From: a virus
Taxonomy: Duplodnaviria; Heunggongvirae; Uroviricota; Caudoviricetes
Strand: one strand, 5' to 3'
Virus record (IMG/VR): IMGVR_UViG_2737471861_000024
Length of the DNA stretch: 11,634 bases
Both the position numbers and the translations under genes were made by a program. Every line of letters begins with the position of its first letter. Position 1 is the first letter of the stretch. The notes under the pieces were generated by a model that ran no database searches, was not told the origin of the DNA, and worked only from the letters and a program-made list of their open reading frames with translations. Below, piece after piece: positions 1-6,523 of this stretch.

Positions 1-1257
1 GTGCTTACCGATACAAAATTAAAAAACCTCAAGCCGCAGGACAAACTGTACAAGGTATCCGATCGTGACGGGCTGTATGTAGCTGTGCTTACGTCAGGAA
101 CGGTCTCGTTTCGCTATGACTACCGTATCAACGGTCGCCGCGAAACACTGGTAATCGGGCAGTATGGGCGTGACGGTATCAGTCTGGCAGAAGCGCGAGA
201 AGAACTGATTGCTGCAAAGAAGCTGCTTAAAGCAGGCCAGTCGCCGGCTGCGGCTAAACGTGACGGTATCAAAAAGATTCGTGGTGCCGAGACGTTTGCG
301 GTACATACCGACAGTTATATGAAACACGTCATCCTGGCTGACAGTACCCGTGCAATGAAGCAGTCGGTGATCGACCGTGACATACTTCCGGTTCTTGGCA
401 ACAAAATGATGGCTGAAATTACCACATCGATGGTTCGTGATTTGTGTGACCGGATTGTCGAACGCGGTGGCCGTGCAACAGCAGTACAGGCCAGGGAGAT
501 CATCAGCAGCGTATACCGTCACGCCAATGACCGTGGTCATGGTTTGTTTAATCCTGCGGCTGACATTAAACCTTCGTCTATCGCCATATTTAAACCACGA
601 GAGCGAACACTGACACCAGAAGAAATTGGCCTGTTCTTCCGCACGCTGGATGCCATTGGTGCTATGGGCACTATGAAAATGGCTTTAAAGCTGGTGCTTA
701 TCACTATGGTTCGTAAAGGCGAATTCACTAATGCAACGTGGGACGAAATAGATTTTAAAAAATGGACATGGACAATTCCTTCAGACCGCATGAAGGGAAG
801 CCGGGCGCACGTTATTTACCTGCCTAAACAGGCACAGGATATATTGGTTGGGTTGCAGATGTGCGCTGGTGGAAGTGAATATCTGGTTCCTGGTCGTTAC
901 AATTTCCGGAAGCCATTATCTAATGCCGCGCTGAACTCTCTGATCGACAGAACGGTGAAAATAATAAATGAAGATGGTGAGCATATTCAGGACTTCACCG
1001 TACACGATATGCGCCGTACAGCAAGTACGTTGTTGCATGAGGCTGGTTATCCTTCAGACTGGATTGAAAAGGCTCTGGCACATGAGCAGAAAGGTGTGCG
1101 CGCCGTATATAACAAAGCGGAATACGCCAGACAGCGCGCCTACATGTTGCAGCAGTGGGCCGATATGATTGATTCCTGGATTAACGGGGAGCATACGGAT
1201 CTGATTCCGTTCTCCCCGTCGAAGTTTGAGAGGTGGATGGAAGACAGTAATAAATAA
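1..1257 (+). CDS. int: Phage tyrosine integrase (P4-like, N-terminal arm-binding DUF4102-type domain); begins with GTG at window position 1, so either GTG-initiated or truncated by a few codons at the window edge
   Basis: 418-aa ORF; N-terminus LTDTKLKNLKP...DGLY..RY.Y typical of P4-family integrase arm-binding domain; C-terminal catalytic region HDMRRTASTLLHEAGYPSDWIEKALAHE...VRAVYNKAEY with the tyrosine-recombinase His/Arg/Tyr arrangement. Confidence 0.9.
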   Translation: MLTDTKLKNLKPQDKLYKVSDRDGLYVAVLTSGTVSFRYDYRINGRRETLVIGQYGRDGISLAEAREELIAAKKLLKAGQSPAAAKRDGIKKIRGAETFAVHTDSYMKHVILADSTRAMKQSVIDRDILPVLGNKMMAEITTSMVRDLCDRIVERGGRATAVQAREIISSVYRHANDRGHGLFNPAADIKPSSIAIFKPRERTLTPEEIGLFFRTLDAIGAMGTMKMALKLVLITMVRKGEFTNATWDEIDFKKWTWTIPSDRMKGSRAHVIYLPKQAQDILVGLQMCAGGSEYLVPGRYNFRKPLSNAALNSLIDRTVKIINEDGEHIQDFTVHDMRRTASTLLHEAGYPSDWIEKALAHEQKGVRAVYNKAEYARQRAYMLQQWADMIDSWINGEHTDLIPFSPSKFERWMEDSNK

Positions 1258-1259
1258 TT

Positions 1260-1919
1260 CTATCCTTCCTGGAGTTTGGTAAGCGTCAGATTTCCGCAGA
1301 ACACTGCGCCGGTGTCGATGTACATCTGGTTTGCATACACCAGTGGGTGATGTGCTGGCGTATGACCGAAGATGAACAAATCGGCACCGGTTATCTCCGA
1401 GACAATACCGTCCTGCGCGTCGCTAACCCGCTCACGATTCCATATCACCATTTCTTCTGGTACTGGCTTATCGAATGCGTATTCGTTGTGCGGGTAGTCT
1501 GCGTGACAGATGACGACCTTCTTATTGCCGGTAACCAGTTCGATAATCATCGGGAGGTTGGTAATCTTTGGCAGAAGGTATTTGAGTTGCACATCCTGCT
1601 CAGAATCAAGTTGGTGCCACCATCCACCGCCGTTTGACATCCAATGTCCGAAACTTCCGCCGTTGACCAGTGCATCCAGCATCATCTGCTCATGGTTGCC
1701 ACGAACAGCTCGGAACCACGGCATAGTAATCAAATCCAGGCATTCGACGTTTTCAGCGCCGCGGTCAACAAGGTCACCAACGGAAATAAGTAAATCGCGC
1801 GCCGGGTCGAATGAAACTTTGTCGAGTTCGTTCATCAGCAGCGTGTAGCACCCATGCAGATCGCCGACGACGAAGATATTGCACCAGTCAGCGCCATTGA
1901 TACGTTGATATAGGTTCAT
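1260..1919 (-). CDS. Ser/Thr protein phosphatase, PPP-family metallophosphoesterase (lambda PPase / NinI-like); start placed at internal ATG 1919 (MNLYQ...), not at the ORF-track start 2039
   Basis: GDLHG, GDLVDRG, GNHE metallophosphatase motifs; strong collinear similarity to recalled lambda PPase sequence ([71 protein letters not shown]); ATG at 1919 forms an ATGA overlap with the stop of the upstream methyltransferase gene. Confidence 0.85.
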
Positions 1920-2566
1920 GCTGCACGCTCCCGCCCCTGGTTGTCTATTGGTGACACCGGAGCATTGCTGAATGCATTTGTTAATCCGCCAATATCCAAC
2001 GCGTATCCAGGGTGTAGTTGCACTGCCGGGTCTTCGCACTGATTACCCCAAACATCGAAGCCATGAGACTTCTGGCGGGCGAACAGTTCAATGCGAGAAA
2101 CATCGCCTAACAATTGCACAAGTTTTTCACGAACGACATCTGGTTTTCTTGAATGCTCAAGCCGCGGTGCGGTAAATGACTGAACGATCCCTGCATTAAT
2201 GCGTGGAGGTAGTTTTCCCTTTACTGCAAACAGGCAATCTTCACTATTGGCGCGAGTCATGTGTCCCATACCCATAACCAGTTTATCTGGTTGTCGACTA
2301 CCACATTTTATCCACGTGAAGCCCTTCATGGTCATCAGACGGAATCCCCAGGCTTCAACAACTTTTAGCGCTTCGAGTGGTTGTGTTGGCACCCACCACA
2401 TGGCCAACAGACAGTTTTCATCGGCCAAATCCCACACAGGAAGGCGGCAGATATCCATCACACTCATAACCGGATATTTAAAACTGGCACCGCGATTACC
2501 ATCTGCGGCTTTGTCCCGGTATACCCAGGGTGGATCTGCATAGATTAGTGTGTATTTCTTAGTCAT
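1916..2566 (-). CDS. MT-A70 family DNA N6-adenine methyltransferase (phage orphan Dam-like MTase)
   Basis: 216-aa ORF with DPPW catalytic motif near N-terminus ([10 protein letters not shown]) characteristic of MT-A70-type N6-adenine methyltransferases; GGGGTGG Shine-Dalgarno-like sequence upstream of ATG at 2566; stop overlaps phosphatase start (ATGA). Confidence 0.8.
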
Positions 2567-2858
2567 AAACCACCCCGCAACATCCTATACCGCTATAGTC
2601 TCCACGGCGAAGGCCGTTACCTTTTGTGATACATTGGTCCCTGCGAACCGCGATCCTTGCACGCTCAACATCACCAGAAGCAACATCCATACACTGAAGC
2701 CAAAGGTGGGCGGCAATCCGGAACTGCCCTTTTTTCTCTCTTTCAATCGCGCGTTTTTCGATCTCTATCGCCGCAGGAGTAACGGCAACAACCTTTGAAG
2801 GGCTGCGCATTGAAACCTTGTTCATGTGATATTTTTCAAGTCGGCTTAACTTTCTCAC
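2559..2858 (-). CDS. Hypothetical protein (~83-99 aa; start ambiguous: GTG 2858, ATG 2825 or ATG 2810); 3' end overlaps methyltransferase start by 8 bp
   Basis: ORF in operon context with GAGAGGG Shine-Dalgarno-like sequence about 9 nt upstream of GTG 2858; no recognisable motif. Confidence 0.4.
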   Translation of the reverse strand: MRKLSRLEKYHMNKVSMRSPSKVVAVTPAAIEIEKRAIEREKKGQFRIAAHLWLQCMDVASGDVERARIAVRRDQCITKGNGLRRGDYSGIGCCGVVYD

Positions 2859-2967
2859 TTAATCCAACCCTCTCTGAAAATTAATGCCAGCAGATAAAGC
2901 CATGCTGAAACAGAGGCCAGGAATAAGTACCATCCTGACCATTTGCTCCAGTGCCTTAGCAGCGCAC

Positions 2968-3216
2968 TCATGCAGCGTTGCTCACGGGACGATATACACG
3001 TTGCTGAACAGGAGGTTTTTTACCCTGGAACTCTGCCGGGCTTGCTGCCTGACGTTCATCAAGCCAACGCTCAACTTCATCACGGTTCCATGCGCAGCGT
3101 TTATCGGTGATATACCAGCGTTTAGGAAATTCCCCTGCGCGCTCCATACGGTCGATAGTGCTCCATGACAGTGGCACCACCGCCAGGAGTTCCTTCTTAC
3201 CTAATGCACCTTTCAT
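2968..3216 (-). CDS. AlpA-family / excisionase-like small DNA-binding protein (MerR-superfamily HTH)
   Basis: 82-aa ORF; segment LLAVVPLSWSTIDRMERAGEFPKRWYITDKRCAWNRDEVERWLDER matches the AlpA/Xis pattern (st.y......G.FP....ig.r...W...EV..WL); GAGAGGT Shine-Dalgarno upstream of ATG 3216. Confidence 0.7.
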   Translation of the reverse strand: MKGALGKKELLAVVPLSWSTIDRMERAGEFPKRWYITDKRCAWNRDEVERWLDERQAASPAEFQGKKPPVQQRVYRPVSNAA

Positions 3217-3237
3217 AAATACCTCTCTTGGTTGCAG

Positions 3238-3258
3238 TGCGGCGCGCGTGGCGCCGCG
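3238..3258. other. GC-rich hairpin (7-bp stem GCGGCGC / GCGCCGC, 5-nt loop) in the bet / xis-like intergenic spacer; no flanking T-run on either strand
   Basis: Inverted repeat read directly: gcggcgc-gcgtg-gcgccgc at 3239-3257. Confidence 0.4.
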
Positions 3259-3265
3259 GTGGTGG

Positions 3266-4147
3266 TTACATAGATGTTTCGTTTAATTCTTCCCGACGAA
3301 CGCTGTAAACGTCGGTGGCTTTTGCCAGCAGTTCGTCATCATCTGAAAGTTTTTGTGCAATGTATTTGTAAGCCTTATCCAGTTCGGAGACAGTGCTGTA
3401 ATTCATCGCTGCGCTGGTAAAGGCCATCAGCATTTCTTCTGGATCACGGCTATCCGCTTTACGCGTTTGCTCATCAGGCTTTTTCGCTGGTTTAGCGTTG
3501 ATCAGACTGTTCATTCCCGCAGCAGTGGTCGTTTGCGGAGTAATGTCTCGCTCAACGCGCGGTGCCGTTTCCTGTAATTCGTCAGGGGTGTAAACACCGA
3601 GAAGTACATCAGGAGCGTGCAGGCGAGCCCATCGTTTCGTGCAAAGATAGGCAAGTTGCTGGCGCGGATCCTGTTCCCACAATGGAGAGTTACGCACTCC
3701 GGCTTGCGCCATACTGATGGTAAGCTCACGGGGTTCTGCTTCTCCTTTAAGAACCGCTGACACAGTTACCGTCAGATTCGGTGATTTATCTGTTTTGCCG
3801 TTAACATTCGACCAGTCACCGCTCCAGCGATAATTCAGGCGTGTCGCTAGCAGGCTGGAAGAGGATACGACCGCGTTTACCAACTGTGCTTCGTAGCCTA
3901 ACGTTCCGTTTACCACATGCGTTTTTTGCGCCACGGCGAAAGGGTTCATTCCCCACTGTGCCGCCTGCATGGTCACCGCCAGACAATCGGAAGGTTTGCC
4001 TTCAAGATGTTTCGGTACAGTCGCTTTGCTTTGTGACATCAACTCCGCGAAACGCACCAGTTGATTCATGCCCTCCGGGCTGAAGATTGCCGCAGCAGTA
4101 CCTACAGTTGCGCCTGGTTGTGATGTGATTGCGATATCATTGCTCAT
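3266..4147 (-). CDS. bet: Red-beta / Bet family single-strand annealing protein (recombinase)
   Basis: 293-aa ORF; ERDITP and surrounding C-terminal region resemble lambda Bet (ERQPERDITPVNDE); N-terminal region GMNPFAVAQKTHVVNGTLGYEAQLVNAVV typical of Red-beta family; start ATG overlaps stop of upstream nuclease gene (ATGA). Confidence 0.8.
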   Translation of the reverse strand: MSNDIAITSQPGATVGTAAAIFSPEGMNQLVRFAELMSQSKATVPKHLEGKPSDCLAVTMQAAQWGMNPFAVAQKTHVVNGTLGYEAQLVNAVVSSSSLLATRLNYRWSGDWSNVNGKTDKSPNLTVTVSAVLKGEAEPRELTISMAQAGVRNSPLWEQDPRQQLAYLCTKRWARLHAPDVLLGVYTPDELQETAPRVERDITPQTTTAAGMNSLINAKPAKKPDEQTRKADSRDPEEMLMAFTSAAMNYSTVSELDKAYKYIAQKLSDDDELLAKATDVYSVRREELNETSM

Positions 4148-4965
4148 ACGTACATATCCTGTTTACGTGCCCAGTCAGGGCGTTTAATAATTTCCACTCC
4201 GCCCCACTCATCGTTGATGCGGCATTCGTGATAGGTATTCAGATCCCGGCGGAACAGAGCGTGCCCGGCATCGACATCCGGCGCATCCAACTCGAACACG
4301 CGTACCGGATACCGACCACAATCAATGCTTTCGCTCACGGCAAGAAAGAAAAAACCATGCGGCTGACCAGTAACCTTCATTGCGCCTTCGCGGTACATTG
4401 CGTCCTGCACGTGGTAGCGGAATTCCTCGATGTGGCGTGCAAAACGGTCCATATCTGCAACCTTTTTCACGTCGACGATCACGTTGTGCTCGTTCAGCCA
4501 TTTGTCTGGACGAATGCGGCACAACTCACCAGTCTCTTCATCGTTCCAGTACATTGATGCTTCGTAGTAACCAGGTGCTTCCAGCATCCAGCGTGCCGCC
4601 GGGTGAGCCATTGCGCTATCACGCATCAGCTCCAGTTTCCGCCACTGCTCGGCATCAAGTACCGCAATCCCCATATCCGCTACATCACGAAGAAATGCTT
4701 CTTCGTCAGCTTTACCTTGTTTCGTCCGACGATCGAACTTTGGTGAAACAATGAAGCGTTTGTCGAATTCTCCAGGTTCCAGAAGCAGACAGTGCAATGC
4801 AGTTCCCATATCTAGTGCAGACTTTTTCTCTTCGTCTTCTGGTGCTGCCTGAACCCATTTAAGAAGCGCCGGATTCTTGGCAACCATGTCCAGTTGCGAC
4901 TTACTCACGCCGTCACCGGCGTGGTAGTCTTCGTTGCTGATGTCGAAATAAATTCCCGGTTTCAT
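4144..4965 (-). CDS. PD-(D/E)xK family exonuclease (RecB/Cas4-like nuclease domain), recombination partner of Bet
   Basis: 273-aa ORF; motifs RPDKW ... IVDVKKV (D ... D-x-K) and downstream YHVQDAMY (Q..Y) typical of PD-(D/E)xK nucleases; sits directly upstream of and translationally coupled to bet, as in RecE/RecT-type modules. Confidence 0.75.
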   Translation of the reverse strand: MKPGIYFDISNEDYHAGDGVSKSQLDMVAKNPALLKWVQAAPEDEEKKSALDMGTALHCLLLEPGEFDKRFIVSPKFDRRTKQGKADEEAFLRDVADMGIAVLDAEQWRKLELMRDSAMAHPAARWMLEAPGYYEASMYWNDEETGELCRIRPDKWLNEHNVIVDVKKVADMDRFARHIEEFRYHVQDAMYREGAMKVTGQPHGFFFLAVSESIDCGRYPVRVFELDAPDVDAGHALFRRDLNTYHECRINDEWGGVEIIKRPDWARKQDMYV

Positions 4966-5268: not shown

Positions 5269-6303
5269 TCAATATTTGATATACGCGTCCTGCACTTTGC
5301 CGCCAGCGATAGCCAACATTGCTTTCTGCGCGAATTCTTCGGGAATGCCTTGGGCTATCAGATCTTCGATTACTCTGCGGTTAACGGTACGGCGATGCTC
5401 TTTATCCGCAGCTCGGCGCGCTTCTTCGTCGGCGATACGCTTCTGTTCGTCAAGGCGGGCTTTTTCTGCCGCCTCTTGGCGTCGGCGTTCCTCGGCAACG
5501 GCTTCTTCTTTTTCGCGTTGTGCACGCTGCTCTGCTTCAATTCGCTGACGTTCTGCTACTTCAGCACGTGCTTTCTCTTCCGCCGCCAGGCGTGCCGCAG
5601 CCTCAATTTCAGATTTCGCTTTTTGTTCAGCTTCGAGCCTGGCCTGTTCAGCAGCTTCCCGGCGGATATTCTCTTCTCGCTCAATGCGCGCTTTTTCCTC
5701 CGCTTCTTTGCGAAGTCGCTCCAGCTCAGCGGCTTCATGCTCGCGTTTTTGAGCTACTGCGAGTGATTCTTCCAGTTTCTGGATGGTTGAATCCTTGGCT
5801 ACTCCAGCTTCTGCTGCGTACTCATGCCAACTCTCATCAAGTGCTACTGATTTAGCCTCTTGAATTCGTTCCTGAATATCAGTTGATGGCAAGTAGTTTC
5901 CGGAGAGATCGATCACGTCAGCTAGTGCTCGCAAATTTGTCAGGCGTTGTTGCAGTGCTTCGGTGCGTAATTTCTCAGCATTTTCCCACTCGGTGAGTGG
6001 GCGGCGTACTTCATCACGAAGCCGATCGCATTCGGTTACGAAGCGTCGTAACTCTGCTTCAACTACTTTCGGCTGTTCTTTCAGGCGTTTCAGATAATCA
6101 CGTCCTGGTTTTTCTACCGCTGTTTTACTTCTTGAAACCTTCGCAGCCAGAGATGCAATGCGCTTTCTGCCTTTGTCTGTGCTAATGTCAGGCACTTCAT
6201 TAACACCTTCACGGATCTGCTCAAGAAACTTTTCCAGTCCTTTTTCAACGTAAATTCTTGGTGCCATATCTGGTGTGATTTCGATGATTGATGATTCACT
6301 CAT
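5269..6303 (-). CDS. Hypothetical protein with long E/R/K/A/Q-rich charged helical repeat region (coiled-coil or single-alpha-helix-like), 344 aa
   Basis: Long ORF; residues ~180-300 are nearly pure E/A/R/K/Q repeats (EAEQKAKSEIEAAARLAAEEKARAEVAERQRIEAEQRAQREKEE...) flanked by non-repetitive N- and C-terminal segments; start ATG overlaps stop of upstream small ORF. Confidence 0.7.
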   Translation of the reverse strand: MSESSIIEITPDMAPRIYVEKGLEKFLEQIREGVNEVPDISTDKGRKRIASLAAKVSRSKTAVEKPGRDYLKRLKEQPKVVEAELRRFVTECDRLRDEVRRPLTEWENAEKLRTEALQQRLTNLRALADVIDLSGNYLPSTDIQERIQEAKSVALDESWHEYAAEAGVAKDSTIQKLEESLAVAQKREHEAAELERLRKEAEEKARIEREENIRREAAEQARLEAEQKAKSEIEAAARLAAEEKARAEVAERQRIEAEQRAQREKEEAVAEERRRQEAAEKARLDEQKRIADEEARRAADKEHRRTVNRRVIEDLIAQGIPEEFAQKAMLAIAGGKVQDAYIKY

Positions 6304-6480: not shown

Positions 6481-6495
6481 TTACCGTTGAGGTAA
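6481..6495. promoter_or_regulatory. Operator-like palindrome TTACC-GTTGA-GGTAA overlapping the -10 / transcription start of the leftward early promoter
   Basis: Perfect 5-bp inverted half-sites separated by 5 bp; same motif recurs at 6543-6557, 7255-7269, 9586-9600 and 9648-9662. Confidence 0.55.
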
Positions 6496-6523
6496 TAATT
6501 ATGCGTATCTGGTTTGGTGTCAA
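6495..6523 (-). promoter_or_regulatory. Putative leftward early promoter (PL-like): -35 TTGACA (6523-6518), 17-bp spacer, -10 AATTAT (6500-6495) on minus strand
   Basis: Perfect consensus -35 hexamer with 17-bp spacing to an A2/T6-containing -10; flanked by operator palindromes; positioned in front of the leftward operon. Confidence 0.5.

Follow-up and report, generated by a model that had tools for sequence, protein, structure and literature searches.

An 11,634-nt stretch of Caudoviricetes DNA from IMG/VR (hereafter the window) carries two overlapping minus-strand ORFs next to a plus-strand integrase gene. The upstream ORF encodes an adenine methyltransferase of the MT-A70 family, and the downstream ORF, with its ATG at 1919-1917 and its stop codon at 1262-1260, encodes a phosphatase of the lambda NinI type. 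The features on which the analysis is built are given below with their window coordinates.

1..1257, plus strand: P4-type tyrosine integrase gene int (Pfam Arm-DNA-bind_3, Phage_int_M and Phage_integrase), convergent with the left operon
1260..1919, minus strand: NinI / lambda-PPase-type Ser/Thr phosphatase, 219 aa, last gene of the leftward operon, in its variable terminal slot
1916..1919, minus strand: ATGA stop/start overlap of the methyltransferase and phosphatase genes, read directly from the sequence
1928..1931, minus strand: GGAG Shine-Dalgarno-like element within the 3' end of the methyltransferase gene, 8 nt 5' of the phosphatase ATG
1916..2566, minus strand: orphan MT-A70 family (DPPW) N6-adenine methyltransferase, 216 aa
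2525..2536, minus strand: DPPW catalytic motif, methyltransferase residues 11-14 (YADPPWVY, residues 9-16)
2559..2858, minus strand: PerC-like small regulator ORF (PF06069, E 5e-7; PHROG 868), with an 8-nt overlap with the methyltransferase start
2855..2971, minus strand: 38-aa ORF with a 4-nt overlap at each side, annotated in phiV10 as a membrane protein
2968..3216, minus strand: AlpA/Xis-like HTH protein (PF05930)
6495..6523, minus strand: sigma-70-like promoter TTGACA-17-AATTAT, candidate early-left promoter with a putative function

The plus strand reads TCAT at 1916-1919, that is, ATGA on the minus strand, so that the TGA stop of the methyltransferase gene and the ATG of the phosphatase gene share 4 nt; the overlap described in the original prediction is real. 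The GGAG element stands in the minus-strand context GGCGGGAGCGTGCAGCATGA, and translation of the phosphatase would start from this element, at the ATG that overlaps the methyltransferase stop. The same prediction had placed the pair between a xis-like gene and int. The pair does adjoin int, but it is not directly beside the xis-like gene, as the PerC-like ORF and the 38-aa ORF intervene. The PerC-like ORF was considered as a fixed partner of the methyltransferase and rejected: other genes intervene between the two in Salmonella phage SPN1S, and in two further loci the distance between them is about 0.76 kb (L009) and about 1.2 kb (L016).

At the other end of the pair, the stop codons of int and the phosphatase gene face each other with 2 nt between them (window 1255-1262), and no terminator was predicted between them by a simple scan. 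Since none was predicted there, left-operon transcripts would run antisense into int, an arrangement that recalls the retroregulation of lambda int.

The left operon of Uetakevirus prophages

Judged by nucleotide identity and gene order, the window represents the left arm of a Uetakevirus prophage of the phiV10/epsilon15 type. Positions 1-3300 are 99.4% identical in nucleotide sequence to Escherichia phage vB_EcoP_PAS61 (OQ921333, genus Uetakevirus), and the int-NinI-methyltransferase locus of this phage agrees with the window in gene order, overlaps and product names, the three genes being annotated as integrase, 'serine/threonine protein phosphatase NinI' and adenine DNA methyltransferase. 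The locus is already annotated, under the same product names, in the published genome of this phage and in 143 complete E. coli genomes of RefSeq; the phage papers on PAS61 and ZX5 contain no discussion of these genes. RefSeq E. coli prophages with the matching locus adjoin guaA. A broader set of relatives, including phiV10, O157 typing phages 9 and 10, ZX5 and TL-2011b, aligned at 97-98% identity with 80% query coverage, and the piece missing from phiV10 and its relatives is the phosphatase gene only.

The left operon follows the order repressor, terminator, promoter-like site, small ORFs, PD-(D/E)XK exonuclease, RecT, AlpA/Xis-like protein, 38-aa ORF, PerC-like ORF, methyltransferase and terminal gene. 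This order is common to phiV10, SPN1S and epsilon15, and the terminal gene alone differs among them. The methyltransferase gene is a conserved orphan gene of Uetakevirus early-left operons. The candidate early-left promoter lies just downstream of a terminator (6594-6575) that comes after the repressor gene, and in epsilon15 repressor operators are annotated at the equivalent place. Transcription from 6523-6495 would cover the whole operon through the phosphatase gene, so that both the methyltransferase and the phosphatase would be expressed from the left promoter after infection or induction. The operon would then extend from the repressor, terminator and promoter to a terminal cargo gene, 2 nt short of the convergent int.

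The window and PAS61 differ outside the aligned region. A 344-aa ORF on the minus strand (5269-6303) is rich in Glu, Ala, Arg and Lys over a long stretch that resembles a coiled coil; it matches PHROG 1376, a family of unknown function, and has a weak match of the TolA type. At its place both PAS61 and phiV10 have only a 153-bp ORF, so that a second variable slot seems to lie here, close to the left promoter. The right operons of the window and PAS61 also differ.

The downstream ORF encodes a NinI-type phosphatase

The product of the downstream ORF matches the calcineurin-like metallophosphoesterase family (PF00149, E 1.3e-15) and PHROG 246, 'NinI-like serine-threonine phosphatase' (E 9e-108). 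Its residues 1-217 aligned with the lambda PPase structure 1G5B (lambda NinI, orf221) at E 2e-99, with 144 of the 217 residues identical (66%). The close likeness to lambda PPase that had been noted at first sight therefore extends over the full length, and the nin region was correctly given as the home of the lambda copy. The PPP signature motifs, common to both proteins, are intact in the window (GDLHG at residues 19-23, GDLVDRG at 47-53 and GNHE at 74-77). We took D20, H22, D49, R53, N75, H76, H139, R162 and H186 to be the metal-ligand and catalytic residues of lambda PPase (1G5B), and every one of the positions compared is identical in the window phosphatase. The enzyme would be a Mn-dependent protein phosphatase acting on host or phage phosphoproteins.

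Equivalence to the chromosomal phosphatases PrpA and PrpB was also considered and rejected, as the scores against the NCBIfam equivalog models NF008516 and NF007425 (266.5 and 221.2 bits, respectively) stayed below the cut-offs of 326 and 332. On these scores, the window phosphatase is a relative of E. coli PrpA/PrpB and no equivalog. In the table of a lambda CRISPRi screen, the literature status given for the ninI gene is non-essential (PMC10695390). Our literature search for a biological target or an anti-defence role of NinI returned no report, the lambda phosphatase otherwise appearing only as a reagent, and PADLOC gave no defence or anti-defence match for the window phosphatase.

The upstream ORF encodes an orphan MT-A70 methyltransferase

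The methyltransferase scored 78.7 bits against PF05063 (MT-A70; cut-off 23.9), with positions 1-172 of the 172-position profile covered. It matches PHROG 359, and the solved structures nearest to it are Tetrahymena MTA1 and human METTL3. Inactivity of the enzyme through motif loss, which had been raised beforehand, is not borne out, since the full MT-A70 domain and the DPPW motif are both kept. M.EcoGII, a non-specific adenine methyltransferase that we considered as a possible relative, presumably belongs to a different methyltransferase family.

A Pfam search of the 19 main ORFs found no restriction endonuclease gene in the window, and none is annotated in the complete 39-kb genome of PAS61, indicating that the methyltransferase is an orphan, as had been proposed for the window. 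The alternative, that it belongs to an ordinary restriction-modification system with the nuclease encoded beyond the window, could draw on the PADLOC type II methyltransferase model PDLC03262, which matched at E 1e-77. However, this model recognises the methyltransferase fold only, and in the PADLOC analysis of the pair the methyltransferase matched generic MTase_II models only. Furthermore, no restriction nuclease was seen in the left arms of phiV10, SPN1S and epsilon15, the host flank of the prophage in E. coli consists of guaA, guaB and xseA, and PAS61, at 99.4% identity, is complete. We therefore regard an ordinary restriction-modification system as extremely improbable.

The closest studied relative of the methyltransferase is an enzyme of Stx2a phages (the M.EcoPA8orf6770P/M.EcoGV family), to which it is 83% identical across residues 1-187. 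A mutagenic primer published for M.EcoPA8orf6770P matches the Stx2a gene used in this comparison, with one mismatch outside the positions open for designed changes. In Stx phage phiPA8, M.EcoPA8orf6770P is reported to associate with the protein encoded by PNB-2, the gene upstream of it, and to prefer 16S rRNA to DNA, the holoenzyme favouring RNA over DNA more than 13-fold, and the same study reports a higher frequency of spontaneous prophage induction (PMC10810198). By homology, the window enzyme could likewise act mainly on RNA, methylating 16S rRNA and tuning the induction of the prophage, and not be a DNA anti-restriction enzyme, with the phosphatase as unrelated cargo. The identity, the primer match, the RNA preference and the effect on induction all speak for this reading. 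Nevertheless, the reported activity required PNB-2, of which we found no homologue in the window: BLASTP against the PerC-like ORF upstream of the methyltransferase gave no alignment, and tblastn against the whole window gave nothing below E 1.5. The alignment to the Stx2a enzyme stops at residue 187 of 216, and the last 29 residues are unrelated; it is the C-terminal region of M.EcoPA8orf6770P that was suggested to be important for the partner (PMC10810198). In addition, that study did not establish which rRNA base is modified, and M.EcoGV, described there as 'highly similar' to M.EcoPA8orf6770P (PMC10810198), is listed with GATC DNA specificity when over-produced (PMC6602927). On balance, a predominantly RNA-directed enzyme appears rather unlikely, yet it is the most serious of the alternatives that we weighed.

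The methyltransferase would form m6A in DNA (in a GATC-like context, as listed for M.EcoGV), in 16S rRNA, or in both. The original prediction saw in it a classic anti-restriction or epigenetic device; the orphan status on which this was founded stands, but such a device is one possibility only, given that a homologue with 83% identity is reported as mainly a 16S rRNA methyltransferase (PMC10810198). With the substrate of the family disputed between GATC DNA and 16S rRNA, the window copy, which comes with no PNB-2, is a convenient natural test case.

A variable slot between the methyltransferase gene and int

In the alignment with phiV10, the homologous sequence breaks off within the final few codons of int and begins again at GTTCATG (the first two codons of the downstream gene and ATGA). 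The slot so delimited holds a 195-bp DUF1382 gene (gp32) behind the MT-A70 gene gp33 in phiV10 and the 660-bp phosphatase gene in the window. The DUF1382 gene overlaps the methyltransferase stop by 4 bp, as the phosphatase gene does, and the operon and int are also the same; the window methyltransferase shares 96% amino-acid identity with the copy in the phiV10-like O157 typing phage 10. Other occupants were found as well. E. coli GF43 carries a 249-bp hypothetical gene, again with a 4-bp overlap with the methyltransferase gene, followed by an Ant antirepressor gene, and the slots of Superficieibacter, Pseudescherichia, Citrobacter and Klebsiella contain unrelated ORFs of 55 to 64 aa, every one of which starts at GCATGA.

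We then surveyed the slot in the 80 closest methyltransferase loci in IMG/VR. The phosphatase was present in 29 of them, and about 37 had a gap of about 200 bp to int, which is the phiV10 type. A gap of about 1265 bp was found in four loci and one of 455 bp in a single locus, and the rest reach the contig edge. The junction string GGAGCGTGC(A/T)GCATGA occurred in 77 of the 80 loci regardless of the downstream gene; of the remaining junctions, one has GGAGCATGCAGCATGA and two are shifted out of register by 6 nt. Among complete E. coli genomes, the phosphatase form was present in 143 of 5426, and the methyltransferase/int region was found at 95% identity or more in 543 E. coli records. About 74% of the E. 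coli prophages with this methyltransferase and int have no phosphatase; roughly one quarter to one third of the E. coli relatives carry it in the slot.

The GGAG-N8-ATGA junction at the 3' end of the methyltransferase gene thus precedes at least four unrelated downstream genes in the relatives, and stop/start overlaps are the rule in this operon, being present at seven of nine junctions (five ATGA, one GTGA and one 8-nt overlap). As far as these comparisons tell, the junction belongs to the slot and not to the methyltransferase-phosphatase pair.

Origin and distribution of the two genes

The closest relatives of the phosphatase outside the Uetakeviruses, at 88-92% identity (two loci, L099 and L101), are encoded in arrays of the order NinB-NinE-NinI-NinG; there, the stop codon of NinE and the ATG of the phosphatase gene overlap within GCATGA. 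The ATGA overlap at both the NinE and the methyltransferase stop indicates that donor and recipient share the boundary motif, and the phosphatase gene was apparently swapped as one ORF with exact ends, as is typical of phage mosaicism. No MT-A70 gene was found within the 4-kb flanks of the phosphatase relatives at 78-81% identity; in HK225 and phi80, the closest such phages in GenBank, the phosphatase gene adjoins NinE. Nor was an MT-A70 gene found within 3-4 kb of the nin-region phosphatase relatives at the loci inspected. Conversely, an adjacent phosphatase gene was found in none of 40 species-level loci with a relative of the methyltransferase, and only one of the 40, from Ewingella, has a phosphatase gene nearby.

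In this Ewingella sp. prophage (L024 3543-6767), an MT-A70 gene (68% identity) directly follows NinB, with which it shares one base, in a lambdoid nin region, and a NinI phosphatase gene (49% identity) and NinG lie 0.9 kb downstream of it. The position of this gene after NinB suggests that the methyltransferase family also moves between nin regions and left operons. Klebsiella phage vB_KpnP_BUCT711 (Uetakevirus; L007 3977-4639, 1419-1934) has a NinI-like phosphatase gene in the right operon, immediately upstream of a replication gene and in the same transcription unit, and a DNA cytosine methyltransferase gene further along. In SPN1S (L003 4427-6012), a DGQHR-domain (DndB-like) gene overlaps the MT-A70 start by 4 nt, which pairs a DNA-modification-associated protein with the methyltransferase.

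The phosphatase-in-slot form was also found in diverged lineages, with identities of 83-97% for the phosphatase, 80-90% for int and 51-82% for the methyltransferase and with the same 3' flank, suggesting that this form is old and stable. The most diverged methyltransferase belongs to L104 (IMG/VR UViG_3300025735_000030, 3291-4660): it is 51% identical to that of the window, and the last ~40 nt of its gene, the ATGA junction and the phosphatase are all of the window type, which points to a recombination junction inside the methyltransferase gene of L104. The persistence of the form in diverged lineages is gene retention and no demonstration that the phosphatase works jointly with the methyltransferase. 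The slot position, or co-expression with the methyltransferase, may have some selective value.

The two genes as a proposed joint module

From the overlap, the original prediction had derived a joint host-manipulation module. Set out in full, the methyltransferase and the phosphatase would be one co-selected module for host manipulation or counter-defence, in which the methyltransferase shields the DNA from restriction, the phosphatase reverses kinase signalling by the host or by rival phages, and translational coupling sets the ratio of the two proteins. The overlap is real, and the arrangement is kept in diverged Uetakevirus lineages, including the one with a methyltransferase of 51% identity. 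A role of the phosphatase in phage conflicts is also conceivable by analogy, because phage kinases are now known to disarm defences, as the T7 kinase does in its host (PMC13645617).

However, the derivation of a module from the overlap is not supported. At least four unrelated cargo genes use the same junction, overlaps are the general style of the operon (7/9), the phosphatase gene of the nin arrays overlaps NinE in the same manner, and about three quarters of the E. coli prophages with this methyltransferase lack the phosphatase. Each of the two enzymes is also common by itself: the single nearby phosphatase among the 40 species-level methyltransferase loci is non-adjacent, and the nin-region relatives of the phosphatase that we inspected have no MT-A70 gene close by. 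The lack of a defence-related PADLOC match for the phosphatase and of an anti-defence role for NinI in the literature searched points the same way. We accordingly consider a co-selected module to be improbable.

Discussion

We established the identities of the genes, their intact motifs, the synteny with Uetakevirus phages, the variability of the slot and the junction common to its occupants. Very likely, the locus forms the distal part of the early-left operon in a temperate Uetakevirus phage and consists of a conserved orphan methyltransferase gene and a mosaic slot that here holds a relocated NinI gene. The slot after the methyltransferase gene would serve as a site of mosaic exchange, into which a cassette of exactly one ORF, the NinI-type phosphatase gene, would have come from the nin region of a lambdoid phage, and the methyltransferase and the phosphatase would act independently of each other.

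A bolder reading can be put forward, although we give it little chance of being right. The GGAG-N8-ATGA end of the Uetakevirus methyltransferase gene might be a dedicated docking point for exact-ORF swaps, at which any incoming gene is translated automatically; the phosphatase might act against host defences that rely on kinases, or against kinases brought in by superinfecting phages, and together with the orphan methyltransferase it might form a counter-defence islet.

The lesson of the locus is mainly a negative one. Several unrelated genes use one junction here, so that a stop/start overlap of 4 nt in a tight phage operon should not count as evidence of a functional partnership. The locus also illustrates cleanly how lambdoid nin regions and Uetakevirus left operons, with an ATGA boundary in common, exchange a cassette that is exactly one ORF.

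In the Stx2a phages that encode M.EcoPA8orf6770P or M.EcoGV, the methyltransferase has the DPPW motif and its gene lies in an int-proximal early region, as in the window, and a DUF1382 gene comes after it, as in phiV10. The gene upstream of the methyltransferase is PNB-2 in phiPA8, whereas the window has the PerC-like ORF at that position. Lambda NinI is encoded in the rightward nin region before Q, whereas the window phosphatase stands at the end of a leftward operon beside int. Its C-terminus is three residues shorter than that of the nin relatives and different from it (…LTKLQEG in the window and …LVQVQGGSHA in the nin relatives), while all the metal-ligand positions of lambda PPase are shared.
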